A stretch of 61,683 bases of DNA from positions 5,882,570 through 5,944,252 of the forward strand of contig NC_057719.1 of assembly GCF_004010195.1 (NCBI RefSeq). Direction: 5' to 3'. Shown here piece by piece: positions 1,086-32,671 of the stretch; positions within the stretch are counted from its first letter, which is position 1; every line of letters starts with the position of its first letter. The position numbers and the translations under genes were made by a program. The notes under the pieces were generated by a model. It had not been told where the DNA came from and did not search any database. It worked only from the letters and a program-made list of their open reading frames with translations. The DNA is from Chiloscyllium plagiosum (Eukaryota).

Positions 1086-2954
1086 TAGAGTCACAGAGAT
1101 GCATAGCACGGAAACAGACTCTTCGGTCCAACCTGTCCATGCCGACCAGATATCCCAACCCAACCTAGTCCCACCTGCAAGCACCTGGCCCATATCCCTC
1201 CCAACACTCCCTATTCATATACCCACCCAGATGCCTTTTAAATGTTGTAATTGTACCAGCCTCCACCACTTCCTCTGGCAGCCCATTCCATACACATACC
1301 ACCCTCTGCGTGAAAAAGTTGCTCCTTAGGTCCCTTTTAATTTTTTTCCCCCTTCACCCTAAATCTATGCCCTGTAGTTCTGGACTCTCCCATCCCAGGG
1401 AAAAGTCCTTGTCTATTTACCCTATTCATGCCTTTCATGATTTTATAAACTTCCTGTAAGGTCATTTGGAAAGGCAAGGACTGATTAGGGATAATCAACA
1501 TGGCTTATGCATGGGAAATCATGTCTCACAAAATTGTTTTGAGTTTTTTTGAAGAAGTAATGAAGAGGATTGATGACGGCAGAGCAGTGGATGTGATCTA
1601 TATAGACTTCAGTAAGGCATTCGACAAGTGTTGAACACTCCAGCCTGTTCAACCTCTCCCCCTGTAGCTCAAATCCTCCGACCCTGGCAATATTGTAAAC
1701 ATTTTCTGAACCCTTTCAAGTTTCTGATAGGAGCGAAACCAGAACTGCACTCAATATTCTAAAAGTGGCCTAGTCAAAGTCCTGTACAGCCACAACATGA
1801 CCTCAATGCTCTTTCCAATAATAGGAAAGCATACCAAACACCTTCTTCACTATCCTTTCTACCTGCAACTCCACTTTCAAGGTGCTATGAAACTGCATTC
1901 CAAGGTCTTTTTGTTCAGCAACACTCCCCCAGGACCTTACCATTAAGTGTATATTTCTGCTCTGATTTGCTTTCCCAAAATGTAGTACCCTACATTTATC
2001 TAAATTAAACTCCATTTGCCACTCCTCAACCCATTGGCCTATCTGATCAAGATCCCATTATACTCTGAGGTAACCTTCTTCGCCATACACTACACCTCCA
2101 ATTTTGGTGTCATCTGCAGACTTACTAACTATACCTCCTATGTTCCCATCCAAATCATTTATATAAATGACAAAAATTAGTGGACCCAGCACCAATCATT
2201 GCGGCACAACACTGGCCACAGGCCTCCAGTCTGAAAAGCAACCCTCCACCACCGCCCTCTGTTTTCTACCTTCAAGCCAGTTCAGTATCCAAATGGCTAC
2301 TTCTTCCTGTATTCCATGGGATCTAACCTTGCTAACCTGTCTACCACGGGGAACCTTGTCGTACGCCTTACTGAAGTCTATATAGATCACATCCACTGCT
2401 CTGCCCTCATCAATCCTCTTCGTTACTTCTTCAAAAAACTCAATCAATTTTGTGAGACATGATTTCCCTAATCAGTCCTTGGCTTTTCAAATACATCTAA
2501 ATCCTATCCCTCAGGATTCCTTCCAACAACTTGCCCACCACTGATGTGAGGCTCACCAGTCCCTGGTGAGCCTGACCAGTCCTTACCACCTTTCTTAAAT
2601 AATGGTACCACGTTAGCCAACCTCCAGTTTTCCAGCACCTCACCTGTCACTTTCGATGATACAAATATCTCAGCAAGGGGCTTAGTAATCACTTCCCTAG
2701 CTTCTCACATATTTATGGGGATGCCTGACCAAGTCCTGGGGATTTATCCACTTTTACATGTTTTAAGATATCCAGGATCACCACCTCTGTAATATGGACA
2801 TTTTTCAAGATGTCACCATCTATTTCCCCAAATTCTGTATCTTCTTTGTCCTCCTCCACAGTAAACACTACAAAATACTCGTTTAGTATCTCCCCCATCG
2901 CCTGTGGCTCTTCACATAAGTTGCCTTGCTGATCTTTGAGGGGCCCTATTCTCT
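1086..2954 (-). mobile_element. CR1 LINE, 3' part (RT domain and 3' tail), degenerate
   Basis: ORFs 2196..2447 ([32 protein letters not shown]...VPQ), 2504..2692, 2713..2898 and 1803..2015 are CR1 ORF2 pieces. 3' tail at about 1086-1150. Continues at 7016 after a 4 kb insertion. Confidence 0.92.
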
Positions 2955-3048
2955 AGGAGAAAGTGAGGTCTGCAGATGCTGGAGATCAAAGTTGAAACTT
3001 TATTGCTGGAACAGCACAGCAGGTCAGGCAGCATCCAGGGAACAGGAG

Positions 3049-3084
3049 ATTCGACGTTTCGGGCACAGGCCCTTCTTCAGGAAT
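3049..3084 (-). ncRNA. Minimal type I hammerhead ribozyme motif, antisense copy
   Basis: Exact reverse complement of 3352-3387. Confidence 0.78.
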
Positions 3085-3351
3085 GAGCAGAGAGTGTTCA
3101 GCAGGAGAAGATAAAAGGTAGGGAGGAGGGACTTGGAGGAGGGGCGTTGGAAATGTGATAGGTGGAAAGAGGTCAAGGTGAGGGTGATAGGTCGGAGTAG
3201 GATGGAGGCGGAGAGGTCAACAAGAAGACTGCAGGTCAGGAAGGCGACGTGGTCGACGGTGCCCTCCACCGCATCTCCTCCACTTCCAACTCCCCTCCTC
3301 CAAGTCCCTCCTCCCTACCTTTTATCTTCTCCTGCTGAACACTCTCTGCTC

Positions 3352-3387
3352 ATTCCTGAAGAAGGGCCTGTGCCCGAAACGTCGAAT
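3352..3387 (+). ncRNA. Minimal type I hammerhead ribozyme motif (PLE-associated)
   Basis: Stem I ATTC/GAAT, core CTGAAGA, stem II GGGC/GCCC with CTGT loop, GAAA, vestigial palindromic stem III (ACGT), GTC triplet with predicted cut after 3383. Confidence 0.8.
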
Positions 3388-4856
3388 CTCCTGTTCCCTG
3401 GATGCTGCCTGACCTGCTGTGCTGTTCCAGCAATAAAGTTTCAACTTTGATATCCAAATGAATCCAACAAGAACTGGACCAAGCATATGTGGTACTCATA
3501 ATCTTCTTCATCCTAAGTATACGCATGATTTTACTACAACTGCTAAGTATTTCATCAGTAATATTTTCAGCAACATAACACAAAACATCGCAGATAAGAA
3601 AAACTGCAGCATATTAACATGCCAAATTTCCCCTAAAGTAAATGCATTAAAATTCCATCAAATTTGACAATATTGTTATGTATTTGGCTTTAAGGGGTTA
3701 ACACGTAGGGGGTTCCATACAACAGCCAAGCAGGGTGAGATCAATAGTTGTGATGTTGAGAAGATATGCTCTTCTTCATTAGGGTAAATAAAACCACAGA
3801 AAGTAGACAAAATCAAACACAAAATATTGCTGAGGAAAGGAGTGAACAAAGACAGAAATGGGAACTATTTAAATGTAAATCTATGATTCGCTCCAGTAAT
3901 AATATCTAACAATATTCAATATCTAGGATCATACCAAAAGAGTACTTTGAAGTATTAAAGGGATTTTCTGCTATCTAGTGATCTCTGAGGCATGAAGTTT
4001 CCCTTTCTTGATATGTGCAAGATCAAGACAAACACTAGGCATACAGTAACAGTGATATCACCGCAGGGAGTTGGCAGCCAATTACACTGAAGTATTCTCA
4101 AACAGCAAATCAGAAAGTAAAATGCAGTAAAATCTTCTACTCAATTAAAATTTCCACAGAGTAAATACAAATCATCAGTGATACACATGGGATTAAAGTA
4201 GCTGAAATATCATAACTTTTTTTTAAATTTGAAAAAAACATTATTGCCATAATAATGGCAAAAAAGCATCCCAGTGATATAACATTAGATTTCTATGAGT
4301 AACTATTGAGTTATTAAAATTAAATTGCATTTATATAGTAACTGTTATGGCCACAGAAAGATCCAAAATGCTTTACAGCCAATAAAGTACTTTGGAAGTA
4401 CAGTCAGTGTTGACACATAGCAGGCAATTTACATGTAGCAAGCTCCCACAAAAAGAAATGCTGTACTAATTATTGAAAAAATATTGACTATGACACCTGG
4501 AACAACTTTCTCATCAGTGGTGAGGTTCTGGAACCCACGAGTTCAAAGGGTAATACAGGCAAAAACCATAATCACATTAAAACATGCGGTGGAACAGTCA
4601 ATGGGTTTAGGAATCAAAATTTGGAGAGTGGGATTAGTGTGACGAGGTATTCATCGACTGGTATGGACATAATGTGCCAGACGACTACCTTCTGTGCATG
4701 AAATCTTACTGTGTTTTCTATGTATCTATAACTCTTATTAAAAATAGTGCCATTGGCTCTTCTATGTCTACATTAGAGGACAGACAGGCCTTCACTTAGT
4801 AGGCTCTCGTCAAAAAGATAGCAGCTTAAATCTTCCAACTTCCCTCACTGGATTGG

Positions 4857-5203
4857 AATGTGTTGCTGGAAAAGCGCAGCAGGTCAGGCAGCATCCAGGG
4901 AACAGGAGAATCGACGTTTCGGGCATAAACCCTTCTTCAGGAATGAGGAAAGTTTGTCCAGCAGGCTAAGATAAAAGGTAGGGAGGAGGGACTTGGGGGA
5001 GGGGCGTCGGAAATGTGATAGGTGGAAAGAGGTCAAGGTGAGGGTGATAGGCCAGACTGGGGTGGGGGCGGAGAGGTCGGGAAGAAGATTGCAGGTTAGG
5101 AAGGCGGTGCTGAGTTCGATGGATTTGACTGAGACAAGGTGGGAGGAGGGGAAATGAAATTTTCAGCTCTGATCTCCAGCATCTGCAGACCTCACTTTCT
5201 CCT
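4857..5203 (-). mobile_element. Neptune-like PLE 3' terminal fragment (second subfamily) with short inverted tip
   Basis: Same terminal repeat with AATGTGTTGCTGGAAAAGCGC variant. Hammerhead core on - at about 4910-4944. Inverted tip 5160-5203. Confidence 0.8.
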
Positions 5204-5573
5204 AGCCATAGTGAAGCCACACAGTGTCTAACTCAATGACTCGTCTCTGGTAAATACGAACGTTGTTGATCTCCTCTTGTGTTGAAATCAGAAACAGACA
5301 TGAAGGTGACAATTGGAAGCCACCCACCCTGCACTGAGACTGAAGCCAGCCGTCTCTGGTTTGATGTTTTCAAGAAAGACCTTTATATCTGCGATGGGAA
5401 GATTTGGGTGTCAATCTTACAAGGTAATGCAACAATATCATTAAGGTAGAGATGGATTGTTTGTAGTGCCACCCCTCAGTGAAGTTGTTAATGAATAAAT
5501 AGAATACATAAAGAAAGAAAGTCACATTTGTATGAACCTCAGCAAGGCTCATTACGGTCAATGAAATTTTTTT

Positions 5574-6088
5574 GGGGGCGGAGTTAGGCGTGGTGGCGGA
5601 ACGCGGCGGGGGGGCGGGGTTAGGCGTGGTGACGGAACGCGGCGGGGGGGCGGGGTTAGGCGTGGTGACGGAACGCGGCGGGGGGGCGGGGTTAGGCGTG
5701 GTGACGGAACGCGGCGGGGGGGCGGGGTTAGGCGTGGTGACGGAACGCGGCGGGGGGGCGGGGTTAGGCGTGGTGACGGAACGCGGCGGGGGGGCGGGGT
5801 TAGGCGTGGTGACGGAACGCGGCGGGGGGGCGGGGTTAGGCGTGGTGACGGAACGCGGCGGGGGGGCGGGGTTAGGCGTGGTGACGGAACGCGGCGGGGG
5901 GGCGGGGTTAGGCGTGGTGACGGAACGCGGCGGGGGGGCGGGGTTAGGCGTGGTGACGGAACGCGGCGGGGGGGCGGGGTTAGGCGTGGTGACGGAACGC
6001 GGCGGGGGGGCGGGGTTAGGCGTGGTGACGGAACGCGGCGGGGGGGCGGGGTTAGGCGTGGTGACGGAACGCGGCGGGGGGGCGGGGA
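5574..6088. repeat. GC-rich minisatellite, 36 bp unit GGCGTGGTGACGGAACGCGGCGGGGGGGCGGGGTTA x ~14
   Basis: Near-perfect tandem array visible directly. Gives 12-aa periodic ORFs in the track. Confidence 0.97.
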
Positions 6089-6928
6089 CACATGCGGGGA
6101 TGTGGTCCAAATGTAGGTTGCTGACGTCACTGGGGGCGGAAATAGCTGCGGCGACCACGGAGACAGAGTTTTCCCCATAGCCGCGGAGGTCGCCAATCTG
6201 TTGGCGATTGTCTTCATGACGATCGCAGAGCAGGTTGTCTGTGCGGCGATCCCGGAGGCGGTTGTTTGGGCCGCGATCATGAAGGTTGCGAGGTCGGTGG
6301 GGGCGGAAGTGACGTCATCGCCGGCGGCGTCTGCTGCTATTGCCGCGGGCGCTGTAGCGGCCGCGTGTGTAATGGCGCCGGACTGGTTTCGGAGGCCGAT
6401 GGAAGTTTCTGGAACGGTTTAGGAATCCGGAGTTTGGGGGTAAGTACATGAAAGTTTTTGGTACTTACTGCCTTTAATTTCCGATATGGCTAGAAAGAAC
6501 TGTTTGTTCAGTCTATGGATTCTTCTGTAAATGAAGAATAGTAGAGGTCCTTTACAGGTCTGTGAGAGAGTTGTCCTGAACTGGGGTAGGTCGAGTTGCA
6601 GGGAATGTAGGTACTGGCGCATGGCTGCAAGCGTGGAGTGGAGGATCCGGAGGGCAGTCCGTTGCTGGAGGCTGCGGATTTGTTGCAGGTACTGGTTGTC
6701 CTGGTTGGGTCCAAATTGTGTTGGTCGGAAGGTGATCTGGAGTCCATGGGAGATCAGTCGGTTCCGTAGGCAGGTGCTGAGAAAGGAGATATGGCTGTGG
6801 TAACGAGTCTGCTTCAGAATGTGGCTGAAGAGCTTCTGTGCAGAGGAGATGACCTGGGGTGTGCAGTGAGAGAGGAACTCACTGAAATCTTTGTAGAGAG
6901 AGGCAGAGAGCTTCTTCAAGGAAGGCAT
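5574..6928 (-). pseudogene. Neptune-like PLE ORF, N-terminal domain plus low-complexity linker (3'-truncated, disrupted)
   Basis: 6419..6928 contains HISFLSTCLRNRLISHGL, resembling the PLE N-terminal H..FL..C motif. ATG follows the PLE terminal repeat (6964-7015). Homologous to 61107-61683. In-frame TAA at 6419-21 where the other copy has TCA. Confidence 0.75.
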
Positions 6929-7015
6929 CCTTGTAAGAGGATTCGCAGTAGGTTGAAATCTTCGAGGAGAAAGTGAGGTCTGCAGATGCTGGAGATCAAA
7001 GTTGAAACTTTATTG

Positions 7016-9110
7016 CTATTCTCTCCCTAGTTACCCTTTTGTCCTCAATATATTTATCAAATCCCTTTGGGTTCTCCTTGGGCGGCACGGTGGCACAGTG
7101 GTTAGCACTGCTGCCTCACAGTGCCAGAAACCTGGGTTCAATTCCCGCCTCAAGCGACTGACTGTGTGGAGTTTGCACGTTTTCTCCATGTCTGCTTGGG
7201 TTTGCTCCGGGTGCTCCGGTTTCCTCCCACAGTCCAAAGATGTGCAGGTCAGGTGAATTGGCCATGCTAAATTGACCGTAGTGTTAGGTAAGGGGTAAAT
7301 GTAGGGGTATGGGTGGGTTGTGCTTCGGCGGGTCGGTGTGGACTTGTTGGGCCAAGGGCCTGTTTCCACACTGTAAGTAATCTAATCTAATCTAATCTAA
7401 TCATAATCCTATTTGCCAAAGCTATCTCATGTTCCCTTTTGGCCAAAGCTATCTCATGTTCCCTTTTGGCCCTGCTGATTTCCCTCTTAAGTATACTGCT
7501 ACTGCCTTTATACTCTACTAAGGATTAATTTAATCTATCTTGTCTCTACCTGACATATGCTTCCTTCTTTTTCTTAACCAAACCCTCATTTTCGTTAGTC
7601 ATCCAGCATTCCCTATACCTATCTGCCTTTCCTTTCACCCTAACAGGAATATACTATCTCTGGACTCTCATTATCTCATTTCTGAAGGCCTCCCATTTTC
7701 CAGCCATCCTTTTATCTGCAAACATCTGCCCCCAGTCAGCTTTTGAAAGTTCTTGCCTAAAATGTCAAAATTGGCCTTTCTCCAATTTAGAACTTCAACT
7801 TTTAGATCTGGTCTATCCTTTTCCATCACTTAAACTAATAGAGTTAAGGTCGCTGGCCCCAAACTGCTCTCCCACTAACACCTCAGTCACCTACCCTGCT
7901 TTATTCCCCAAGAGTAGGTCAAGTTTTGCATCCTCTCTAGTTAGGTACATCCACATATTGAATCAAAAAATTTTCTCGTACACACTTAACAAATTCCTCT
8001 CCATCTAAACCCTTAACACTCTGGCAGTCATAGTCTATGTTTGGAAAGTTAAAATCCCCTTCCATAACCACCCTATTATTCATACAGATAACTGAGATCT
8101 CCTTACAAATCTGTTTCTTAATTCCCGCTGACTATTGGGGGGTCTATTGTACAATCCCAATAAGGTGATCATTCCTTTCTTGTTTCTCAGTTCCACCCAA
8201 ATAACTTCCCTGGATGGATTCCCAGGAATATCCTCCCTAAATACAGCTGTAATGCTATACCTTATCAAAAATGCCACTGCCCCTCCTCTCTCGCCCCCCC
8301 CTTTCAATCCTCCCTGTAGCATTTGTATCCTGGAACATTAAGCTGCCAGTCCTGTCCATCCCTGAGCCACATCTCTGTAATTGCTATGATATGTCAGTCC
8401 CATGTTCCTAACCATGTCCTGAGTTCACCTGCCTTCCCTGTTAGGTCTCTTATATTGAAATAAATGCAGTTTAATTTATCAGTCCTAACTTGTTCTCTGC
8501 TTTGTTCCTGTCAGCCCTGACTGTTTGACACTCTCCTTTTCCCAACTGTACCAGTCTCAGATTGATCTCTGTCCTCACTATTTAGCTGGGTCCCCCCTCC
8601 TTCCCCTCCCAATATTACTCGTGTAAAACCTCCTGAGCACCTCTAGCTAATCTATATGTCCCCTTCAAATTCAGGTGCAATCTGCCCTTCTTGTACAGGA
8701 CACTTCTCTCCCAGAAGAGATTCCAATGATCCAAGAATGTAAACCCTTCTCCCCTGCACCAACTCCTCAGGCATTCATCTGCTCTATCATCCTATTCCTA
8801 CCCTCACGACCTCATAGCACCGGGAGTAATCCAGGTGCCCTCGAGGACCACCTTTTTAAATTCCTGCCTAACTTTCCATATTCTCCCTTCAGAATCTCAT
8901 CCCCTTTCCTTCCCAGTTCCAATGTGTATAGAAACCACCTGCTGGTCCCTCTCCCCTTTGAGAAGGTTCTGCACCCTCTCCAAGACATCCTTGATCCTGG
9001 AACCAGGGAAGCAACACACCATTCTGATTTTTCACCGCCGACCGCAGAAACATCTGTCTGTGCCTCTGATCGAGAGTCCCCTATCATAATCAATCACTTG
9101 GAACCCTTCA
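7016..9110 (-). mobile_element. CR1 LINE, 5' part (APE endonuclease and ORF1 SGNH-esterase region), same element as 1086-2954
   Basis: 8080..8322 (GGAVAFLIR...IWVELRNKKGMITLLGLYNRPPNS) is APE endonuclease. 8812..9093 (IMIGDS...) is esterase-like ORF1. Colinear with the CR1 copy at 37870-39860. Interrupted by a SINE at 7080-7402. Confidence 0.9.
7080..7402 (+). mobile_element. HE1-type tRNA-derived V-SINE, full length
   Basis: GGGCGGCACGGTGGCACAGTGGTTAGC head (A box), GGTTCAATTCC B box, V-domain TGTGTGGAGTTTGCACGT, CR1-like tail and (CTAAT)n end. Confidence 0.92.
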
Positions 9111-9118
9111 TACACTTT

Positions 9119-9680
9119 CATAGAATCCCTACTGTGTGGAAACAGGCCATTTGGCCCAACAATTCCACACCGACCCTCCGAAGAACATCTCACCCAGACC
9201 CACTCCCCGAAGCATATACCCCTGACGAAGGCACCTAACCTTACATGTCCCTGAACACTGTGGAGGAGAAAGTGAGGTCTGCAGATGCTGGAGATCAGAG
9301 CTGAAAATGTGTTGCTGGAAAAGCGCAGCTGGTCAGGCAGCATCCAGGGAACAGGAGAATCGACGTTTCGGGCATAAGCCTTCCTGAAGAAGGGCTTATG
9401 CCCGAAACGTCGATTCTCCTGTTCCCTGGATGCTGCCTGACCTGCTGCGCTTTTCCAGCAACACATTTTCAGCCCTGAACACTGTGGGCAATTTCCCATG
9501 GCCAATTCACCTAACCTGCACATCTTTGGATTATGGGAGGAAACCAGAGTACCTGGAGGAAACCCACGCAGACACAGGGAGAATGTGAAAACTCCACACA
9601 GACAGCCGCCCAAGGCTGGAATTGAATCTGGGTCCCTGGCACTGTGAGGCAGAAGTACTTATCACTGAGCCACTGTGCCA
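9119..9680 (-). mobile_element. HE1-type SINE interrupted by a PLE hairpin
   Basis: Reverse-complement similarity to 7080-7402. Split at 9263/9473 by an insertion with TSD. Confidence 0.85.
9264..9472. mobile_element. Fold-back PLE terminal element, TSD CCCTGAACACTGTGG
   Basis: TSD at 9249-9263 and 9473-9487. Inverted arms meet at the hammerhead core (CTGAAGAAGGGCTTATGCCCGAAACGTC). Confidence 0.9.
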
Positions 9681-12396: not shown

Positions 12397-12582
12397 GGAG
12401 GAGAAAGTGAGGTCTGCAGATGCTGGAGATCAGAGATGGAAATGTGTTGCTGGAAAAGCGCAGCAGGTCAGGCAGCATCCAGGGAACAGGAGAATCGACT
12501 GAAGAAGGGCTAATGCCCGAAACGTCGATTCTCCTGTTCCCTAGATGCTGCCTGACCTGCTGCGCTTTTCCAGCAACACATT
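12397..12582. mobile_element. Fold-back PLE terminal element, TSD ACAATCAACCATCA
   Basis: TSD at 12383-12396 and 12583-12596. Inverted arms. One intact hammerhead core on +. Confidence 0.9.
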
Positions 12583-13235: not shown

Positions 13236-14552
13236 CATAAAAATGACATACTGAAGACCTTGTTATGGTATCATTGAGCACTCTAGTATGTTACTGAGAA
13301 GCCAGTATGTAACTAGCAAGGAATACAGAGTATTTTGTTGGATAATTAACTTTATGGATAATCGAATGCCTGATAATACAGTTCAGCCAAGCACTGGAAC
13401 TTTGCAATGTTGTCCAGATATTCTGATATTCGGATAATCGAGGTTACTCTGTATTTGAATTTTATAGGTCATGAAATTTACTAAACTGTTTTGGGTCTAC
13501 TACATACGGCTATGATGTTTATAAAACTAAACATGCAAAGAATATCAATATTAATACAAGACATTTTTTACAATAAAATTTGAAGGAAAATATAATCATG
13601 CCTAAAGAAGACCTTTGAAACAGCAGTGAGCAATCGTGTAAATAAAAAGAAGAGGTAATGGTAGACATGTTGTTTAATTATTTGATATCAGTCTTCACAA
13701 TGGAGGAAGAGGGAAATATAATTGAAATTCTAGAGAAATTAGCAAGGATTCTAACTTAATACTGTTAATGAAAGCAAGAGAACAGTATTAAAAAGAAAAT
13801 CAATGACATGAAAGACTTTTAAATCCCTGGGTTTGATTTTTCTCACCCAGGTTTTAAAGGAAGTAGATGAAAAATTCCAAGGGATGTAGCCATAATCTTC
13901 CAAACCTGCCTTAACTGTAGAATTTTCTTTTAGATATATGCCATAATTTGAAACAAGTGAGAAAAAGAAATGAGGAAAGTAGAGATCTGTTCATCGGACA
14001 TATGTTCTTGATAACTTATTAAAACTTATAATAAAGAACAGTAACTGAGCATTCTCAGTAATTTCAGCTCATCAGAAAAAATCAATAGTAAATCGCCATC
14101 ATGGTGAAGGTAGCAGTTACTGTCTAATTGTGCATTCAGTTGGAGGGAGAGTAGAATGGATCCAAACGAGTATTTTAAAGTAAAATACAATCAGTTTATG
14201 AAGACATGAAAATACCGTGCTAAAATGATTTAGCAAAATAGATTTAGGTTCAATAGCAATCCTGCCAGACATTTAAGGTATCATTAATGGAATAATTATA
14301 TTCCATGAGAAAGAAGAATTCCAAAGTGGGGGTAAACTAATAAAAGCATGTAATTATGCCAGGGTTGAAGGTTGGAAACTATACAAAAGACAGCAAAAAA
14401 TTATTAAGGCAGGAAACAGAGTATAAGGTAAATTAGTCAGAAATATGAAAGCAGGTAGTAAACTTTCCATAGACTTTTTAAAGAAGAAATTAGTTAAGGA
14501 AGTGAATATTGGTTCTTTAGAAAGTGAATCTGGGAAATTAATGATTGCAAAT

Positions 14553-15609
14553 AACCAACCGACTCCCACAGCTACCTGGACTACACCTCCTCCCATCCTG
14601 CCCCCTGTAAAAACGCTATCCCATTCTCCCCTCAGAGATCACTAGATAGCAGAAAATCCCTTTAATACTTCAAAGTACTCTTTTGGTATGATCCTAGATA
14701 TTGAATATTGTTAGATATTATTACTGGAGCGAATCATAGATTTACATTTAAATAGTTCCCATTTCTGTCTTTGTTCACTCCTTTCCTCAGCAATATTTTG
14801 TGTTTGATTTTGTCTACTTTCTGTGGTTTTATTTACCCTAATGAAGAAGAGCATATCTTCTCAACATCACAACTATTGATCTCACCCTGCTTGGCTGTTG
14901 TATGGAACCCCCTACGTGTTAACCCCTTAAAGCCAAATACATAACAATATTGTCAAATTTGATGGAATTTTAATGCATTTACTTTAGGGGAAATTTGGCA
15001 TGTTAATATGCTGCAGTTTTTCTTATCTGCGATGTTTTGTGTTATGTTGCTGAAAATATTACTGATGAAATACTTAGCAGTTGTAGTAAAATCATGCGTA
15101 TACTTAGGATGAAGAAGATTATGAGTACCACATATGCTTGGTCCAGTTCTTGTTGGATTCATTTGGATATCAAAGTTGAAACTTTATTGCTGGAACAGCA
15201 CAGCAGGTCAGGCAGCATCCAGGGAACAGGAGATTCGACGTTTCGGGCACAGGCCCTTCTTCAGGAATGAGCAGAGAGTGTTCAGCAGGAGAAGATAAAA
15301 GGTAGGGAGGAGGGACTTGGAGGAGGGGCGTTGGAAATGTGATAGGTGGAAAGAGCTCCATCCTACTCCGACCTATCACCCTCACCTTGACCTCTTTCCA
15401 CCTATCACATTTCCAACGCCCCTCCTCCAAGTCCCTCCTCCCTACCTTTTATCTTCTCCTGCTGAACACTCTCTGCTCATTCCTGAAGAAGGGCCTGTGC
15501 CCGAAACGTCGAATCTCCTGTTCCCTGGATGCTGCCTGACCTGCTGTGCTGTTCCAGCAATAAAGTTTCAACTTTGATCTCCAGCATCTGCAGACCTCAC
15601 TTTCTCCTC
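14553..15609 (+). mobile_element. Composite PLE insertion: RT fragment (14553-14629) + 539 bp captured DNA (14630-15168) + fold-back terminus (15169-15609)
   Basis: 14553-14629 encodes PTDSHSYLDYTSSHPAPCKNAIPFS, homologous to 30895-30975. 14630-15168 is the reverse complement of 3452-3990. Inverted arms carry hammerhead cores at ~15233-15268 (-) and ~15479-15514 (+). Confidence 0.85.
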
Positions 15610-19679: not shown

Positions 19680-20815
19680 AGATTATTCCATAAATGGTAA
19701 AATGTTCGAGGCTGTAGATGTGTAAAGAGATTGGGTGTCTGCATCAGTAAGTCACTGAAGAAAGCAGGTGCAGTAGGCAATCAGAAAGGTGAATGGTATG
19801 CCAGAATATAGACATTACTGGCTATGCCAGCATTTTACCCATCCTTAATTGCTTAGAAGGCAATTAAGAGTCAAAGATATTGTTGATCTGGAGTCATTAT
19901 GGGTCAGATTGGGTAAGGGTGATAAATTTCTTTCCCTAAAGAACAAAGATCAGTCAGATGCATTTATGCAGCAATCAACATCAATTGCTATTAGCGTAGC
20001 TTTTCATTCCAGAATTTAACTGAATTTGAATTTCACCATCTGCTGGTTTCTCCAGAACATTAGCCTGGGGTTCTGCCTAATTCATATGTTTTGTGTGCAG
20101 TTTACAATAGGGAAGTTATGTCTAATAAATCTAACTTAACTTTTGAGGAAGTAAGTCTTCTACCATTGACCATTGGGAGAAGACCATAGAGACATTGGAT
20201 AATGATATCACACAAGGATTTGTGCTGGGACCTCAACTATCAATTATATTTATCAATGATTTAGATTTTTTTAATTTAACCTATTTTTCTAATGATTCTG
20301 TTCAGAGATGTTATTACACAGCCATGGAACAGGTGGGACTTGAACCCAGGCCTTCTGGTCCAGGGGTAGGGACATTACCACTGTGCCACAAGCGGGTCTG
20401 ATATCAATGAGTTAGATAACATGAACACAAATTGGAAACTGAAATAGACCATTCGACCCCCACAAGAAAATTGTGCCTAATTTATTGTGTTTTGAATACC
20501 ACAGTCCAATATATCCTTATAAATCTTTGATTCTCTCATCTAATAGGTTTGCCATTGGCACAAAGATTGGTGACATTGTATGTAGTGTAATGGAGCCATA
20601 AATTTGCAAAGCTACATTGATGAATGAACTGGTAAAACTAGCAGAGGACTTTCTGTACATTTAAGTGAAAAATTATTCATCTTGTTCATAAATCTTTACA
20701 CTGAATGAGGACATAAACTTAAAATCAAAGGCAGGCCATTCAGGAGAGAGGTTAGAAAATGTTCAGCACCATTCACAACTCCTCAAATACTGAAACAGTC
20801 TCTGTTCAAATGAAG

Positions 20816-21002
20816 GAGAAAGTGAGGTCTGCAGATGCTGGAGATCAGAGCTGGAAATGTGTTGCTGGAAAAGCGCAGCAGGTCAGGTAGCATCCAGGGA
20901 ACAGGAGAATCGATGTTAGAAGGGCTTATGCCCGAAACGTCGATTCTCCTGTTCCCTGGATGCTGCCTGACCTGCTGCGCTTTTCCAGCAATACATTTCC
21001 AG
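20816..21002. mobile_element. Fold-back PLE terminal element, TSD CTCTGTTCAAATGAAG
   Basis: TSD at 20800-20815 and 21003-21018. Inverted arms joined within the hammerhead core. Confidence 0.9.
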
Positions 21003-22014
21003 CTCTGTTCAAATGAAGCAAGACCTGAACAAAATTCATGTTTGGGTTGAAACTTGGCAAATAACATTCACGCCATACAAATGCCAGGCAATGATCATTT
21101 CTAAGAAGAGAAATTCTGACTGTATACATTGACGTTCAGTGATATTTCAATGACTGGATCCCCCCACTATCAACTTCCTAAGATTTACTGTTGACCAGAA
21201 ACTGGACCAACCATATAAATACAGTGACTACAAGAGGAGGTTAAAGGCTAGGAGTCCTGTAATAAGCAACTCATCCCTTGGTTCCCAAAGTCTGTCCACC
21301 ATCTACAAGGGACAAATCAAGAGCATAGTGGGATGCTTTCTCCTTTCCTGGATAGATGCAGCTCTATCAGCATTCAAGAAGCTTGATACCATCCAGGACA
21401 AAGTAGCCACCTGATTTGGGGCCACATCCACAATTATCCACTCCACCACTGATGCTTACTATTCGTGGTATGTACCATCTGCCTCTTGCAAAATTTCACC
21501 AAAGGTCCTTCACCAGCATTTCCAAGCCAACAACAGCTTCCATCGAGAAGGACAAGGGCAGCAGATACATGAGAACACTATCACTGCAATTTTCTTTCCA
21601 AGCTATTCAGCATTCTGATTTGGAACAATCCAATGACACTGAATCAAGACATAAAACTTCCCTGGCATGGTGGGTCTCCCTACAGCACATGGACTGCATT
21701 GGTTCAAGAAGACAGATTACCACCTTCTCAAGGGCAGCTAGGGGCAGGGAATGCACCCACATCCAATGGGGGAATTAAAAAAAACACTTGTTCCTTCAAA
21801 GCATTATAGATATGTGGAACTCTCCCATAAATTCAGATTTAAATTCATTGAGATCACATCTCTACCATCGGGGAGAAGGTACAGAAGCCTGAACACGTGC
21901 ACCAGCCAGTTTCACAACAGTTTCTATCCTACTGTTGTTAGCATACTGAATGGACTCTCAAACTCTTAGCATGTGATCTCAATGAATTTAAATCTGAGAT
22001 GAACAGTTTCTTAA

Positions 22015-24718: not shown

Positions 24719-24836
24719 TTAGAAGAGGGTGAGCAGTTTGCTAAGATGGTAACAGAGATGAATGAAAAAGAACCTGAGTTTCGGGCCAAAGGTTTCTTAG
24801 CACTTGGCTTAACCTACAGTCTCCAGGCCACAGATG
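24719..24836 (+). CDS. TTC7B: TTC7B internal coding exon ([39 protein letters not shown])
   Basis: Polypyrimidine tract + CAG acceptor at 24717-18, GTAAG donor at 24837. Manual translation resembles human TTC7B as I recall it (LEEAEKFAK...[18 protein letters not shown]). 118 nt, ends in phase 1. Confidence 0.93.
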
Positions 24837-27800
24837 GTAAGGGCATCATATAAAGTCACAAAACTTGGCAGCATGGCCTTATGATTTATACAGTGCGATG
24901 TAGTCCTCCCTGTATTCTCATGGAGAAATTAGGAATAATTACTTTTGCTCCTCTAACTTGTCTTTTTTTCCTAGAGCTGCATAGCTCCTTATCTTCCTGC
25001 CTTTTTCCTACTAAGCATTCGACATCTAAATCTGGTGCCAGTTAACCTCAGCTTTGTTAGACTCTGTGGTATCCTGCACAGTCACCTTGAATTCTTAATT
25101 CAGGAATGTGCCAGGCTTACCGTGTCGTTTCAAACCATTTACAAGCAAAATACTGCCAATGATGAAAATCTAAAATAAAAACAAAGTTCTGGAGTAACTC
25201 AGTGGGTCTGGCAGTATCTGTAGCAAGAGAAGCAGAGTTAATCTTTCGACCTGGTTGAGTCGTCTTTGGAACTGAAAGAGGCTGGAAAATAATGGTTTAT
25301 GTGCTGTTGAGCAGGAAGAGAAATGAGTGGAACAGATGGTGAGGGCATCCACAGCAAAGCACAAGTGGAAAGCTAAAGTTATTAAAGGTAGATATAGATG
25401 CAAACTGATATTATTGATAGGTGTGAATAGTTGAAAATAGGTCACCTTTGCTGAGAGCAAATCTATGCCATCAAGATATCTGATGGAGGATAATAAAAAT
25501 GGAGGATTGTGTTCATGCCCTAAAGTTCTTGAATGCAGTGTTGAGCCCCGAAAGCTAAAAGTATCGAATCAAAAGTAAGATGGTGTCCTCTAGCATGCAT
25601 TAGGTTTCACTGGAACACTGCAGGGTAAAAACGTTTCATTTTCCAGTCCTCTTCAGCTCCATAGAAGAGTCATTGAGCTTGAAGTATTAATACTGTTTCT
25701 CTGGCTGTAGATCTTGCTAAACTTGCTGAGTTTCTCCAGCAGTTTGTGTTGATGTCTTAAATCGGTTTGGGGCAAGAAGAAAGGATATCAATTGGATCTT
25801 TCCTAGTTCATGCACAAATTTTTAATACAACACCTCAGTTGCATCCTCAAATTATCTCAAATTGGCAGGACACAAACAGGAAGCTATTCAGGGCATTGAG
25901 TCTATGCCAATTCTGTCAGAGGACAATTCAGTCAGTCCCACACCCCTGATCTTTCACCAAGTCCTAAATTATTTATCTACATAATTTAACAATTCAATTC
26001 CTTTTTGGAAACTATGATTACATTTTGGAACCTTAAGTATTAACTATAATTATTCACAGCTTAGATCACAGGGCAGAGTGCTTCATAAGTTTGCAAATGA
26101 CACAAAGATTGTCAGCATTTTAACATTATAGAAGGAAGCATAAAATTCCAAAGAGATGTAAATAAAGTGAATCAAGAAGGCTATGCCAAATGGATTTCAA
26201 TATTTTTGAGTGTGGGAAATACGTTCTAAATGATGGAAAGCTAGAAAGTGTAGAGGTCAAAAAGTAATTAGGGGTCTGTGTACATAGATCAGTAAAATAT
26301 CATGATCAAATACAAAACTCATGAAAAAGACTAATAGAATGCTGGTTAGTATATCCAGAGAACTGCAAACAGAACGGGTTGGAACGTTTGTGATGCTTAC
26401 TTTACAAACACCTAAAGTGCCATGTTCAGCTCTGGGCACCACACCTCAGGGAAGGACACATTGGTCTTGGATAGCATGCTATATGGACTCACCAGAATGA
26501 CACCTGGCTCTCACTGTTAAATTCAATGCATTAAATACAGAAACTGAGCTTGTAGTCTTTGCAATTTCAACCATGATGGAACGATTTGATTTAAATTTTC
26601 AAAATACTAAGGAGACCATAGGCTATATAACTGGGGAAACTGTAACTGGAAGACATGGTTTTAAAAATAGAGCCAAGTCTTTTGGAGAATAAAAGTAGGA
26701 AACACTCTGCATACAAAGCTATCTTCCACAAATGGAAGTTGATTATTTTGTTGAAAAACTGAGGTAGAAAGATTTCTATGAAGCAAAGGTACTAAGTGAT
26801 TTGAAGCAAAGGTGAATATATAGCATCATGATCTTCTTTAATTGTGGAGCAGGCTCAAGGAGCTAATTTGTGTTTTCCTGTTTCTATGAATTGGTATTTA
26901 CAATTCTATTGAGCAGTGAATCCTGAAGAAAGTGGTTCTTCTGCCAATCACCTTTGATTAACAATGCTTTAGCCATCAGAAACAATGTCTCCTTACTTAC
27001 TCTATACTCTTAAATTTATATGCTTCTATTAAAGCTCCTCTTAGTCCTAGTTTCTCTAGTCTATCCATATAACTGGAATCACTTGTGAAATTGACTATCA
27101 AAGGTCAGCATGGGACCCCAGTCATATTCCAAGCTAGGCAGGGCTGCCTGTGTTTTGTCAATATTTGTAATGTTCCATTCATGTGATGTGTTGAACCTCC
27201 ACAGGCTTCCTTTTTCAAGCTGTCCTTTATTATTAGCAACCGCCTTGTTACCTCATGCGGTTGTCCCAACAGGTACTGATCTTGCGCTCCCATTCTCTCT
27301 CTAGTCTCATACAGATTTTGACTATTCTCAGTTTTAAAGTCATAAGCCTCGCTGAATCTGGTGGACTTGAACATTGCAGTTCCCATGCTTTGCCTCCATG
27401 CCCTGGAAACTCATTAAAAGCCATGTTGTACGCGATGAAAGTACAAGTACATTTTGTGGTCCCAGTTGGGAGCTACCAACCCTGGTTGCATGTATCACAG
27501 GAGGATATGATTGCATTATCTCCCACCTAAAATCACTCCACAGTCCAGCCTACTCAATATGTTTGTGACCGTGGCCTTCCCCACGTCAATCGAAAAATAA
27601 ACAATTTCTTCATTACTTGATTGAATCATTATTGACTCTGCTAAACAGCCTTTCTTCCACCCCTCCCCCATCTCCAATTTCTTTATATGTCCCTCCACAG
27701 TTGCCCATAATAGTGTCCAGGAATCCTGGCGATGTTGGAACAATTCAAGGCTGCTACCTGCCCAACCCAACCAGTGAAAGTGTAGTAAATGTTTTCTCAC

Positions 27801-28167: not shown

Positions 28168-28983
28168 GTGTGTGTTTAAAAAAAACAAAGTAAATAAACA
28201 CCTTTGAAAAATGTAATATATAATTCTTACGGTTACCATGACAACTAAAATGGATGAGATATTTTGCTTGCAAGCTTTAATTGCACACAACACCTCTCTG
28301 AGTGCTCCAGTGGAGAGTTTCTGACTACGAAGTAAGTGCTAGCAACTTTTAGCCTATTTTTAGGATTAATGGGAGCATATATTTGTGTAGGTGTCTGATA
28401 GTCATCACTTACGGCAAAAGGAGTGTCACCAGAACATGGAGGTAAAGCAGTGGGAATGAATTGTGAGCATTAAAGTTCTTTTTCGGGTGTCTCTCTGCTC
28501 ACCCATGGGAGAGATGTTAGCACTGAGAAAACAGAACAGTCTTCTTTGAGATGCAGTCAGCTGCAGAGTAAAGTAACTTGCTCAAGTTATTTGTTGCATT
28601 CTCAGAAGACCATGGCATACTGCTTATAAATGTTACATCACTTGACTGTGGCTCTCCCACCATATTGAATTTGAGAGTGATGTCCCGAACTGCAAAAGTC
28701 TTAAATAAAGCCAATTACAGAGGTGTCAAGTACATTGGAAAATTGGATTAAAAGATATGGAGGTAAATACTTGAAGAAATATTTCATAATTCTGAACAAA
28801 TAGGCATTCCAATGAGAAATAAAACATCCACAGAAAAATTGATCCCTCTGTGGCCAACCAAAGCAGTTAAAGGATATTTTTCGATATTAAAAAAATGGCT
28901 TATAATGATGCCAAGATGATTAAAAAGCATGAGGATTATGAAAGTTTTGGAAGCTATCATATGATGACCAAAAGTGTATTAAG

Positions 28984-29120
28984 CTGAAAATGTGTTGCTA
29001 GAAAAGCGCAGCAGGTCAGGCAGCATCCAAGGAGCAGGAGAATCGACGTTTCAGGCATGAGCCTTTCTTCAGGAATTCCTGCAACACATTTTCAGCATCT
29101 GCAGTCCTCACTTTCTCCTC
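28984..29120. mobile_element. Partial fold-back PLE terminal element, TSD AAAAGTGTATTAAG
   Basis: TSD at 28970-28983 and 29122-29135. Confidence 0.85.
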
Positions 29121-29258
29121 AAAAAGTGTATTAAGGGCAAGTAAGTGAATATGAGAGTAACAAGAACAGACATTGCTGGAAAAACTCAGCAGGTCTGGCA
29201 GCATCTGTGAAGAGAATCAGTTAACGTTTTGGGCCCAGTGACCATTCCTCATAACTTG

Positions 29259-30028
29259 GCAGATGTGGCTACTGCAGATGCTGGAGATTAGAATCAAGAT
29301 TAGAGTGGTGCTGGAAAAGCACAGCAGGTCAGGCAGCATCTGAGGAGCAGGAAAATCGACAAAGGCCCTTTATCAGGAATGAGGCTGGGAGCCTCGGGGG
29401 TGGAGAGATAAATGGGAGGGGGGTGGGCCTGGGGAGAAGGTAGCTGAGAGTGCAATAGGTGGATGGAGGTGGGGGTAAAGGTGATAGGTCAGAGAGGAGG
29501 GTGGAGCAGATGGATGGAAAGGAAGATTGACAGATGAGACAGGTCATGAGAACAGTGCTGAGCTGGAAGGCTGGAACTGGAGGGAGGGGAAATGAGAAAA
29601 CTGGTGAGGTCCATGTTGATGCCTTGGGGTTAAAGGGTCCCAAGGCGGAAGATGAGACATTCTTCCTTCAGGCGTTGGGAGGTAAGGGAGTGGCGATGGA
29701 GGAAGCCCAGCACCTGCATGTCCTCGGTAGAGTGGGAAGGGGAGTTGAAATGTTCGGCCACAGGTTGGTGGGTTTGATTGGTGTGGGTGTCCAGGAGATG
29801 TTCTCTGAAGCGCTCTACGAGAAGGCGTCCAGTCTCGCCAGTGTAGATGAGACCGCATCGGGAGCAGCAGATACAGTAAATGATACGTGTGGAAGTGCAG
29901 GTGAAACTTTGATGAATGTGGAATGCTCCTTTGGGGCCTTGGATGGAGGTGAGGAGGGAGGTGGGTAGGTGTGGGCGCAGGCTTTGCAATTCCTGCGGTG
30001 GCAGAGGAGGGTGGGTTGTTAGGGGGCC
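29259..30028 (-). mobile_element. Neptune-like PLE 3' portion: GIY-YIG endonuclease and terminal repeat
   Basis: ORF 29630..30043: IIYCICCSRCGLIYTGETGRLLVERFREH...PVAEHFNSPSHS (GIY-YIG with CCHH). Confidence 0.9.
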
Positions 30029-31473
30029 TTCCCAACTTCCCACCTATCCACTCCACCCTCCTCTCCGACCTATCACCTTTACCCCACCTCCTCCTACCGC
30101 CCCCTTGACCATGACATCACCCCCCAACACCAAACCATCATCTCCCAGACCGTACACAACCTGATCACCTCAGGGGATCTCCCACCCACAGCTTCCAACC
30201 TCATAGTTTGGGAACCCTGCATCGCCCGGTTCTACCTCCTACCCAAGGTCCACAAGCCTGACTACCTCGGCCGACCAATCGTCTCAGTCTGCTCCTGCCC
30301 CACTGAATTCATCTTCACCTACCTCGATACTGTCCTATTCCTCCCTGGTTCAGGAATTCTCCACATGCATTCGGGACACCACTCACCTCCTCCACCTCCT
30401 CCAAGACTTCCGTTTCCCCGGCCCCTGATACCTCATCTTACCTTGGACATCCAATCCTCTACACCTCCATCTACCTTGGCCAGGGCCTGCAAGCCCTCCA
30501 TTTCTTCGTCTCCTGACATCCCCACCAGTACCCTTCCACTGACACTCTCATTCTTTTGGTTGAACTGGTCCTCACCAATTTCTCCTCCAAATCCTCCCAC
30601 TTCCTTGAAATGAAAGGGGTAGCCATGGGCACCCGTATGGACCCCAGCTATGCCTCTCTCTTTGTTGGCTATGTAGAACAGTCCATCTTCCAGAGTTACA
30701 CTGGCACCATTCCCCATCTCTTCCTCCGCTACATTGATGACTGCATTGGCACCACCTTGTGCTCCCATAAAGAGGTTGTACAGTTCATCAACTCCACCCG
30801 ACCTTAAAGTCACCTGGACCATCTCTGACACTTCCTTCCCCATTCTGGACCTCTCCATCTCCATCAACGATGACTCACTTAACACTGACATTTTCTACAA
30901 ACCCATCAACTCCTACAGCTACCTGGATTACACCTTCTCCCACCTTACCTCCTGCAAAAATGCCATCCCGTATTTCCAATTCCTCCACCTCAGCAGCACC
31001 TGCTCCCAGGAGGACCAGTTCCACCACAGCATACACTAGATGGCCTTCCTCTTTCAAGGCGGAACTTCCCCTCCCATGTGGTTGAAGATGCCCTCCAATG
31101 CATCTCATCATGTCCCGCACCTCTGCCCTCAAACTCCACCCCTCTAACCGCAACAAGGACAGAACTCCCCTGGTCCTCACCTGCCACCCCACCAACTTCT
31201 GCATAGATCGCATTATTTGCCGACATTTCTGCCACCTACAAATGCACCCCACCACCAGGGATATATTTCCCTCCCCACCCCTATCTACTTTCGTAAAGAC
31301 CGTTCCCTCCACAACTACGTGGTCAGGTCCACGCCCCCTAACAACCCACCATCCTCTCCTGGCACCTTCCCCTGCCACCGCAGGAATTGCAAAACCTGCG
31401 CCCACACCTCCCCCCTCACCATTATCCAAGGCCCCAAAGGAGCCTTCCACGTCCATCAAAGTTTCACCTGCTC
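30029..31473 (+). mobile_element. Neptune-like PLE reverse transcriptase region (frameshifted), inverted relative to its 3' end
   Basis: FYLLPKVHK..GRP, GVAMGTRMDPSYASLFVG, FLRYIDD, FYKP..S.SYLDY and the zinc-knuckle linker GTFPCHRRNCKTCAH. Whole 29259-31473 unit flanked by TTCCTyATAACTTG (29245-58; 31474-87). Confidence 0.9.
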
Positions 31474-32671
31474 TTCCTTATAACTTGCGCCATTCTGACA
31501 AAAGGTCACCGGACCTGTTACGTTAATTCTGATTTCTCTTCACAGATGCTGCCAGACCTGCTGAGCTTTTCCAGCAATTTTTGTATTTGGTTCTGATTTA
31601 AAGCATCTGCAGTTCTTTCAGTTTTTGTTTAGAATGTGAGAGTAAACTAGTAAGAATAATAAAAGCAAATTTTAAGAGCTACATGTATGTGAAATAGTCG
31701 AGAGTGATGACAGTAAATGCCAATCTCGTGGAGTCTGAGACAGGATAAATTATAATAGGAATAAAGAAATGGCAGAGATGATAAACAAATATTTTATTCG
31801 TTAACAGTATAAATCACAAAAATTGCTACAGGTTCGGAAAACTTACAAGTACTGTTAGAAATAAAGAAACTGGACCCTGGCCTTGCCAGGAATTCCATGT
31901 ACAGCACTGACAATGCCATTTTGTGTTAGCAGAACTTCTGTTTTCTATCCAGTCATCTGCCTCAATAAATATGGTCCCAAGTGTCACAACTCACTGATGT
32001 AGCACACTGGAAATCAGACCCTGCTATCCCCTAAAGAAAACAGAAATTGTTGGAAAAGCTCATTTGTGGACAGAAATCTGAGTCAGTGTTTCGGGACGAG
32101 TGTCCCTTCCTGCTATCCCGTGTTCAACAGAGACTTTGAAAAGGATGGGCCTGTACCTTTAGATTTCAGAAACTGAAATTAGTTTGTTCAAGCATCATCG
32201 GTCTGAGAAGGCTTTTCAGCATAATGGTGAAAGAATGTTTCCTCCCACTGGTCAGCCGAGAGCTAGGAAACATTAACAAATGACAAAGGAGTCTGCCATT
32301 TTAAACTCAGATGAGGAGAAATTTCTTCTTCAAAGGATTGTGGGCATTATGATTCTCAGACACAGAGAGCTGTGAAATCTTAGTTGAGTATATTCAAAGC
32401 TGAGAATGCCCTGGTTTTGAACTCTCTAGGGAAACGTGTGATTATAAGGGTTAAGTCGAATTGAAATTGAAGATGAAATGTGATCTTCCTGACTGGTGGC
32501 GTAGGCTCTACGGCTTGCCCCTGCACCTATTTATGTTATTTTGTTAAGAAAACACCAGCAGGAAAATAATTTTGTCTGCTGTAGAGTATTTCCTCTTTAA
32601 ATTGATTTTCTAAGACAAAAGCAAGTCTTTAAACACTCATTGTTGCCTTTTCTGTCACTTTGGCACCCCAG

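Follow-up and report, generated by a model that had tools for sequence, protein, structure and literature searches.

A Penelope-type element has most likely moved a 2.1-kb unspliced piece of TSPEAR recently into an intron of TTC7B in Chiloscyllium plagiosum. The insertion (copy 1) was analyzed within a 61,683-nt window of contig NC_057719.1 (5,882,570-5,944,252), to which all coordinates refer, and both gene names rest on the labels of matched proteins. Donor evidence came from publicly available contigs, some belonging to this organism and some to a relative (runs X1, X5, and X13); 32 of 278,578 records were listed, with counts incomplete in X1 and X5, and contig depth was not taken as copy number.

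A preliminary description had reported a 4.06-kb insertion bounded by a single 9-bp TSD, and both the insertion and the TSD proved real. The TSD (CTATTCTCT) lies on the forward strand at 2946-2954, inside CR1 ORF2, and at 7016-7024, where the CR1 picks up again, and it occurs nowhere else in the window. By chance alone, a TSD-like match would fall no more than 10 nt from the far end with a probability of about 1.4e-4. Alignment of the flanks to CR1, which the same description had proposed, showed both to be colinear with an intact paralogue (37029-38526), overlapping on the same nine positions. It had also raised a coincidental TSD, arising if the CR1 itself repeated the 9-mer; the interrupted CR1 contains it once. 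In all three DNA runs, the first 21 letters of the loose-end consensus at 2954 are those found from 7025 onward, and the 9-mer is therefore not repeated by CR1. The uninterrupted target sequence was seen solely in paralogous CR1 copies, both in the flank alignment and in contigs of the DNA runs. That PLEs favour CR1 ORF2 as a hot spot in general was not established, the matches being weak. The suggested overlap between TSD and element holds in that CT (7016-7017) is common to the right TSD and the element, while position 7017 is a 5' truncation at -52 and not the element start.

The terminal-repeat piece, ORF N-terminus, VNTR, and hairpin reaching the canonical PLE 3' end were all found as first named. 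A PLE arm that starts at site 0, the canonical end, and reaches -291 (2955-3246, minus strand) adjoins the left target end, from which its cDNA was presumably primed; it is identical to copy 2 at 253/253 positions and to the hairpin at 58201 at 133/133. At the hairpin centre sits a further piece, 41 nt of PLE RT coding sequence, that the earlier account lacked (3247-3287, plus strand, reading VVDGALHRISST), in which 26 of 32 nt match an older PLE at approximately 31078-31109. The second pLTR arm (3288-3451, plus strand) is exact from -189 to -30 and includes a minimal hammerhead core motif (3356-3383), a putative ribozyme of the kind described for PLE pLTRs in the available text of PMC4209133. 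An Rfam scan at gathering score gave 0 matches, hammerhead included. Site 0 is located 117 nt past hammerhead stem II.

On the other side of the cargo, PLE ORF cDNA begins at 5574 with no visible homology at that point. Its VNTR (36 nt × 14.3; 5574-6087, minus strand) is an in-frame proline-rich linker native to the PLE ORF, as in homologue P0001, so that it was rejected both as foreign DNA and as the separate mosaic piece originally proposed. The N-terminal part of the ORF with its leader follows (6088-6964, minus strand; ATG at 6928, in-frame stop at 6419-6421), and then a 53-nt upstream pLTR piece covering -52 to 0 (6965-7017, minus strand), which ends in the 2-nt microhomology with the right TSD. 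The ORF N-terminal piece and the RT piece of copy 2 match P0157 and P0158 (882-883 aa, RT and GIY-YIG), whose GIY-YIG scores above the Pfam cut-off; Pfam gave nothing significant for the young PLE pieces themselves, and no full-length young copy was found in the window. By homology, the element of both copies is thus predicted to be an EN+ PLE with a single ORF encoding RT and, at its C-terminus, GIY-YIG. The inverted truncated arm and 30-nt tail of copy 1 agree with the inverted truncated arm and 30-40 nt tail expected of EN+ PLEs. Its Penelope/Poseidon-type label follows from a geometry like that of the anole element PAc, and presumably the element belongs to the Penelope/Poseidon clade. A typical insertion of this element is a small hairpin flanked by a TSD of 14-16 bp, in which one arm begins at site 0 and its partner 30-42 nt further in; of the six simple hairpins examined, five have second arms ending between -30 and -42. 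TSDs were exact at 14-16 bp in 5/8 other PLE insertions tested, compared with 9 bp in copy 1 and none in copy 2.

The cargo (3452-5573, plus strand) is a single unspliced stretch of 2122 nt from a TSPEAR-like gene, as determined from the donor contigs, and consists of intron, an older PLE, an exon, and 150 nt of the following intron. Because it is one donor block, no template switches are needed between its three inner pieces. The 5204-5573 segment, given as 5204-5570 at the outset and correctly called non-PLE DNA there, is not old junk: it contains a complete 132-nt phase 1-1 coding exon (5292-5423, plus strand; residues 264-308) with both splice sites present (AG at 5290-5291, GT at 5424-5425). 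The segment at 4857-5203 belongs, as had been noted, to a different, older PLE subfamily, with an inverted structure that had been missed (arm 4857-5156 on the minus strand, 47-nt tail 5157-5203 on the plus strand) and no TSD. This older PLE was already at the donor in organism A, and contigs of organism B have other DNA there. The idea that about 2 kb of genomic DNA came from another locus that included this element is accordingly borne out by the contigs. For the ancient SINE and CR1 relics proposed within the cargo, raised contig depth (4076-4519) and one 76% match within the window lend modest support to old repeats as such, whose identity as SINE and CR1 is putative. Among the matches listed, donor contigs cover 3450-4882 in X1, 4467-4882 and 5178-5573 in X5, and 3450-4855 and 5220-5573 in X13. 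The donor contigs of all three runs begin aligning at 3450, and left of this position they hold other DNA without PLE for 1803 nt (X1), 625 nt (X5), and 1802 nt (X13); listed contigs that reach 3450 or 5573 continue into other DNA at those points. A donor within the window was rejected, there being no other TSPEAR exon in it. The T7 run at 5567-5573 aligns in the X5 and X13 donor contigs and was thus rejected as a poly(A) remnant; the cargo end has no poly(A) tail of the L1 transduction type. Across 24 stop-to-stop cargo frames, Pfam returned three weak matches below cut-off and missed the exon, and ESM Atlas scores of at most 0.80, to helical cytokine clusters, were not used. Run X17 (presumed RNA) covers 4202-4463 and 4600-4844 at a depth below 3, with none over the exon among the matches listed, and was not taken as evidence on expression; no RNA dataset containing the cargo was among those listed.

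The left junction of the cargo coincides with the second priming site, 30 nt from the element end, and here the donor and PLE position -30 share 2 nt of microhomology (3450-3451, plus strand; 6/7 bases match). The one other simple hairpin of the same subfamily, at 58201, uses the same base, -30. The cargo junction has the look of a donor DNA end used as primer, not of a random jump. Here the cargo adjoins the inverted arm; at its opposite end it meets 1.39 kb of ORF cDNA, and the distal junctions have 0-1 nt overlap. No read or contig spanning any PLE-cargo junction was present among the 32 of 278,578 records listed. Joints such as 2943 to 4857 were disregarded, as they fall in high-copy repeats.

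The insertion had been read as a single event, which does not explain a second hairpin-plus-cargo copy in the same window (copy 2, 14552-15608), 7.5 kb past the right end of copy 1. A PLE RT piece of about 77 nt (14552-14630, plus strand) lies between target and cargo, followed by 539 nt of cargo with no exon (14630-15168, minus strand), identical to 3452-3990, and by a hairpin (15169-15608, plus strand) with arms from -30 to -216 (15169-15355) and from -252 to 0 (15356-15608). Copy 2 has no TSD and lost a few target bases. Both copies have the identical PLE-cargo junction, with different hairpin centres and distal ends; they share 699 identical nt, and both carry C at 3971 versus T in X1, X5, and X13. 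Derivation of copy 1 from copy 2 was rejected since the cargo of copy 1 is longer, and copy 2 is not a plain truncation of copy 1, as it exceeds copy 1 by 27 nt in its arm and contains an RT piece not present there. Since the junction recurs with another hairpin centre, it is not a one-off template switch. Of the single target-primed event with several switches that was first envisaged, the PLE-driven origin and true TSD remain, while the single-block cargo and the recurrent junction at the second priming site do not fit it.

We lean towards a mechanism in which a young Penelope/Poseidon-type RNP captured TSPEAR-like DNA by priming on two loci. In copy 1, the site-0 arm is joined to the TTC7B-intron target and the -30 arm to TSPEAR intron DNA, and the far end of the cargo runs into PLE ORF cDNA, which meets the target through its 2-nt microhomology. 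Target and donor would both have been cut by the element; one RT would extend the target top strand from site 0 and another the donor bottom strand from -30, and the two cDNA ends would be united as in an ordinary hairpin centre. The far 3' end of the cargo may then have been extended on PLE ORF RNA, with end joining closing the gap and trimming the TSD to 9 bp. The same PLE-donor junction would have been reused for copy 2, either because separate priming took place, within the same germ cell, on a donor end that was a sister or had been replicated, or because a new hairpin arm used 160 nt of identical pLTR to invade copy 1 and then copied 539 nt of its cargo. The PLE-free donor at 3450, the junction at -30, the unspliced cargo, the unsuitable pre-mRNA polarity, and the existence of two copies make two-locus priming somewhat probable. 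Its weakness is the number of cuts and RT events required. Internal priming on ORF RNA with 0-1 nt homology has no known PLE precedent and looks equally like RT template jumping from an RNA end. More tentatively, it is possible that the two primings of a PLE dimer were split between loci, with a telomerase-related RT extending both 3' ends of a host fragment, which was then joined into a second cut site, and with one germ-cell episode yielding several copies.

The two copies could instead derive from RNA, if a PLE with inverted arms resided in the TSPEAR intron on a rare haplotype and its antisense read-through RNA was reverse-transcribed twice. The template would comprise cargo, inverted arm, sense arm, and site 0, and the RT would cross the hairpin stem and jump to ORF RNA at the template end. 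One long RNA could supply all young PLE pieces, the 0-1 nt overlap of the distal junctions resembles template jumping, and, in the available texts, internal initiation allows copying of any pLTR-bearing RNA with upstream sequence (PMC11167929) and antisense templates were proposed to explain intron retention (Arkhipova 2013, PMC3846280). This origin is nevertheless unlikely: the donor junction lacks PLE in listed contigs of three runs (rare alleles can drop from contigs), RNA antisense to TSPEAR is required, the hairpin centre must be rebuilt twice, and the presence of both copies in one intron is left unexplained.

Quite unlikely is a single target-primed RT that used its own cDNA as a fold-back template, leapt at -30 to donor DNA or RNA, copied 2.1 kb, and returned to PLE RNA, with copy 2 templated from copy 1. 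All pieces fit one continuous top strand, the cargo of copy 2 is a subset of that of copy 1, and self-priming fold-back was proposed for PLE palindromes in the available text of PMC3846280. However, the jump would fall exactly at the second priming site with microhomology typical of ordinary target junctions, fold-back on site-0 cDNA cannot yield the central 41-nt RT piece, and TSPEAR and TTC7B pre-mRNA are both opposite in polarity to the template for one continuous cDNA.

An assembly artefact, in which high-copy PLE arms or the VNTR linked genuine junctions belonging to separate loci, is very unlikely. The window contains N gaps, no listed contig spans the insertion or shows the PLE-cargo joint (absence is not provable from contigs), and X1, a possible source run, reads T at 3971, and its donor contig is unbroken; PLE structures trouble assemblies according to the available text of PMC8557442. 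Against this stand the clean TSD in a colinear CR1, the junction at the canonical -30 base, the two different centres and distal ends, the shared C at 3971, and the resolved 514-nt VNTR. Break repair, with the cargo as a templated insertion and PLE pieces added separately at both ends, is extremely improbable, as none of the PLE pieces is flanked by a TSD of its own, a single hairpin is anchored on one side in the target and on the other in the cargo, and the same pattern appears again in copy 2.

PLE-mediated mobilisation of intron-containing host DNA was described in Adineta vaga, along with captured host DNA spacers (Arkhipova et al. 2013, PMC3846280, available text). As there, copy 1 carries unspliced, intron-retaining host gene DNA with pLTR ends in a direct and inverted frame, within one short TSD (8 bp in the rotifer, 9 bp here). 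As far as the available text goes, the rotifer cargo is enclosed by two direct pLTRs and contains no PLE sequence internally, and the donor junction is not given; the cargo of copy 1 is not so placed. Unlike the rotifer case in that text, the shark cargo is fused to an inverted arm at the second priming site and closed by ORF cDNA, and it has a PLE-free donor, two copies with different centres, and a vertebrate host. For the anole Poseidon element PAc in vitro, both strands were cut and extended, with two internal RT start sites defining the tail (Frangieh et al. 2024, PMC11167929, available text); the start there is 111-118 nt after hammerhead stem II, comparable to 117 nt here. The available portion of that work concerns single-target reactions and describes no two-locus joining or host DNA capture. 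Rotifers thus already provide examples of intron-containing host DNA captured by PLEs; the present case comes from a vertebrate, with its donor identified. No vertebrate report of PLE exon capture was found in the literature searched, mostly papers outside subscription.

L1 3' transduction and exon shuffling are general background for DNA moved by retroelements. In them, flanking unique DNA is moved (PMC6431247, available text), as unique DNA including a whole exon was here moved into the intron of another gene. Unlike L1 transduction, there is no poly(A), the source element was not seen in the X1, X5, and X13 donor contigs, and the cargo is antisense to the element RNA. In the available texts, intermediates of L1 insertion at two loci become joined to one another or to DNA breaks (PMC13526784), and genomic fragments are captured at L1 insertion sites (PMC11702581). 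The proposed joining here resembles these cases, in which cDNA-extended ends at two loci recombine and one broken end is replicable into two; they differ in RT/endonuclease class, poly(A) priming, and the use of somatic cell models, in place of an assembled shark locus made by a PLE (PMC13526784, PMC11702581).

Both copies lie in the phase-0 intron of TTC7B upstream of its first exon in the window (24719-24838, plus strand; residues 449-488), and the TSPEAR exon is sense to TTC7B. If spliced, this phase 1-1 exon in a phase-0 intron would read Lys-Gln-Thr-stop in frame 0, with the stop at codon 4. On predicted phase and frame it would not be in frame in the host mRNA, making it a potential poison exon for TTC7B and adding no domain in frame. 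Raw material for exon shuffling is what the locus displays, in that an entire coding exon has landed in sense within a second gene. How host DNA with introns is moved by PLEs has been an open question ever since it was described in rotifers, and this locus offers a named donor gene, a donor that is PLE-free in three runs, and two products that share one junction and differ at the others. RNA transduction versus DNA-end capture becomes a decidable question at these two copies, and their shared junction gives a base-by-base view of possible exon movement by PLEs. If split priming is true, PLEs would be a DNA-level, intron-preserving exon-shuffling route in vertebrates, requiring neither a source element nor a host transcript.

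Copy 1, the insertion at 2946..7024, is a real and recent exon capture mediated by a Penelope-like element (PLE). The preliminary description had it bounded by a single 9 bp TSD, and this was borne out: CTATTCTCT is present at 2946 and 7016 and nowhere else in the window, both flanks align with an intact CR1 paralogue (37029-38526) and overlap there at the same nine positions, and the loose-end consensus at 2954 (three DNA runs) equals the sequence after 7024 over 21 letters. Given the paralogue overlap and these loose ends, the TSD is real; the possibility that the CR1 itself repeats the nine-mer, making the TSD coincidental, fails because the intact paralogue and the 2954 consensus continue directly. 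The flanks, which we take to be CR1, were established here as colinear with paralogues. Inverted repeats in the left-flank CR1 (1464-1628 and 2355-2492) resemble a 5' inversion of that element, and the right-flank CR1 contains a copy, presumably SINE-like, with a TAATC tail (7079-7471), then a 27-nt tandem duplication.

The two TSD copies enclose 4061 nt. A PLE arm running from the canonical end (site 0) to -291 (2955-3246) is followed by 41 nt of RT sequence with polarity opposite to this arm, and then by a second arm that ends at 3451 (position -30) and includes a minimal hammerhead motif (3356-3383), a motif described in the PLE pLTR (PMC4209133). Directly after the second arm come 2122 nt of cargo (3452-5573), and to its right a VNTR, the ORF N-terminus and a 53-nt pLTR piece that joins the right TSD via CT. 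For the ORF pieces, the matching proteins are 882 and 883 aa long, carry RT motifs and score above the Pfam cut-off for GIY-YIG. Since a Hemiscyllium homologue holds degenerate forms of the same proline-rich repeat, the VNTR is, judging by sequence, a native part of the PLE, which we take to be Poseidon. The ORF piece of copy 1 has an in-frame stop (6419-6421), and the copy that served as its template was perhaps non-autonomous. Elsewhere, a related PLE family is represented at 61120-61683 by its linker and N-terminal ORF part, with 69% identity to 6351-6712, and at 29172-31620 lies an older PLE, now decayed, whose long inverted arms span RT and GIY-YIG.

Contigs of four of the 24 public runs listed were compared with window positions 2300-5609, and 32 of 278,578 records were listed. 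Among these matches, run X1 of organism A gave a 3236-nt contig of 1803 nt of other DNA and then 3450-4882 with one difference, and run X5 of the same organism gave 3450-4017 preceded by 625 nt of other DNA, 4467-4882, and 5178-5573 followed by 188 nt of other DNA. Run X13, from a relative (organism B), gave 3450-4855 with 45 differences plus 5220-5573. Neither PLE at 3450 nor VNTR at 5573 was found in the listed donor contigs of these runs. The cargo is one block of a TSPEAR-like gene with its donor locus elsewhere; the proposal that about 2 kb had been captured from another place agrees with the continuation of these contigs into other DNA beyond 3450 or 5573. The older PLE at 4857-5203 was already at the donor in organism A. 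That a single donor locus includes this element is supported by contigs entering it by 26 nt from each end, but none covers the whole cargo. This older PLE has no TSD, and its insertion may have deleted target sequence, as position 4855 is followed in organism B by other DNA for at least 311 nt.

Within the cargo, 5292-5423 is an exon of 132 nt, bordered by AG and GT, whose translation aligns with shark TSPEAR-like proteins over residues 264-308 (98%, 93% and 77% identity) and no further than the splice sites; no other TSPEAR exons were found within the window. Residue 301 is Ile here but Thr in the proteins of C. punctatum and H. ocellatum; an X5 contig over the exon equals the window sequence exactly, so the Ile is not a copy error.

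A second copy, absent from the preliminary description and pivotal for the interpretation, is an inverted insertion within a different old CR1 (14552-15608). Across their common -30 junction the two copies are identical for 699 nt, of which 160 belong to the arm and 539 to the cargo, and both have C at base 3971, where X1, X5 and X13 have T. In copy 2 the arms measure 253 and 187 nt and meet bluntly at the centre, against arms of 292 and 160 nt with the RT piece between them in copy 1. The cargo of copy 2, without the exon, terminates in another ORF piece of about 77 nt. No TSD was found at copy 2, and counting codons indicates a loss of about 6 bases from the target. The 952 shared nt contain 0 differences, which keeps divergence below 0.31%; organism B differs from the window by 3.2%. 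On this measure the two copies arose recently. The T allele, together with unbroken donor contigs among the matches listed (contigs cannot show absence), suggests that the copies are not fixed. Both targets (2946-2954 and 14552) fall in CR1 ORF2, in homologous stretches separated by roughly 40-50 nt on the CR1 scale, and the copies are oriented alike with respect to CR1. PLEs near 28981-31620 may perhaps lie in a nearby part of CR1 ORF2.

Exact 14-16 bp TSDs were found at five of eight other PLE insertions tested in the window. The baseline set comprised small hairpins with such TSDs and differing centres (9264-9478, 12399-12582, 20814-21010, 28981-29119 and 58201-58435). The second arm meets the target at -30 to -42 in five of six simple hairpins, and exactly at -30 in the single simple hairpin of the same subfamily (58201); the left cargo junction, with 2 nt of microhomology (6/7 bases), is therefore an ordinary target-type junction made on TSPEAR DNA. 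Site 0 lies 117 nt downstream of hammerhead stem II, a start geometry that matches anole Poseidon: there, RT begins at two neighbouring sites, 111-118 nt inside the ORF, and both cut strands are extended (PMC11167929).

The window consists of shark DNA; its nearest protein matches carry the labels Chiloscyllium punctatum and Hemiscyllium ocellatum. Five TTC7B exons lie on the + strand (24719-48139). Since the first starts at 24719 and the window yielded none for earlier residues, we infer that both copies lie in the TTC7B intron preceding residue 449. The cargo exon has the same orientation as TTC7B and is accompanied by native intron, 1.8 kb upstream and 150 nt downstream. Its phase is 1-1 and that of the host intron is 0; if spliced, it would be predicted to reach a stop at codon 4 in frame 0. 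Its pyrimidine tract covers 11/17 positions and is weaker than the 16/17 of the host exon that follows.

Junction anatomy, donor and the two copies are established; as to mechanism, we lean towards capture of a DNA end. The -30 arm would be primed at a cut donor (TSPEAR) DNA end and the site-0 arm at the TTC7B target, the arms would be joined to each other, the far cargo end would be extended on ORF RNA by putative internal priming, and the gap would be closed by end joining with trimming of the TSD. Copy 2 might be the product of a sister donor end within that cell, or else of homology-guided copying of copy 1. L1 offers precedents, with reports of intermediates at two loci being joined, an unligated end replicated and genomic pieces captured (PMC13526784, PMC11702581). 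A continuous top-strand cDNA requires a minus-sense template, and the TSPEAR and TTC7B pre-mRNAs are both plus-sense in the insertion orientation, which supports the DNA route; counting against DNA-end capture, no record across the PLE-cargo junction was found among the matches listed (32 of 278,578). The main rival, antisense RNA transduction out of a rare PLE-bearing TSPEAR allele, is unlikely; in its favour, antisense templates were proposed for intron retention by Arkhipova et al. (PMC3846280). More doubtful still is a single target-primed event with running template switches, as first proposed: its PLE-mediated capture stands, but its running switches rank below DNA-end capture. An assembly artefact is highly improbable.

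For a rotifer, PMC3846280 reports host DNA that keeps its introns, framed by PLE sequence, with a TSD of 8 bp (the case is cited also in PMC6431247 and PMC8557442), and retrozymes are treated in a preprint (10.64898/2026.07.22.740005). Among the papers listed by the literature searches, none reported exon capture by a PLE in a vertebrate. The shark case is like the rotifer one in that intron-containing host DNA is framed by PLE; it differs from the description in PMC3846280 in that the cargo is fused at the second priming site to an inverted arm, that ORF cDNA closes its other side, that it is present twice, and that its donor is PLE-free in the contigs of other runs.
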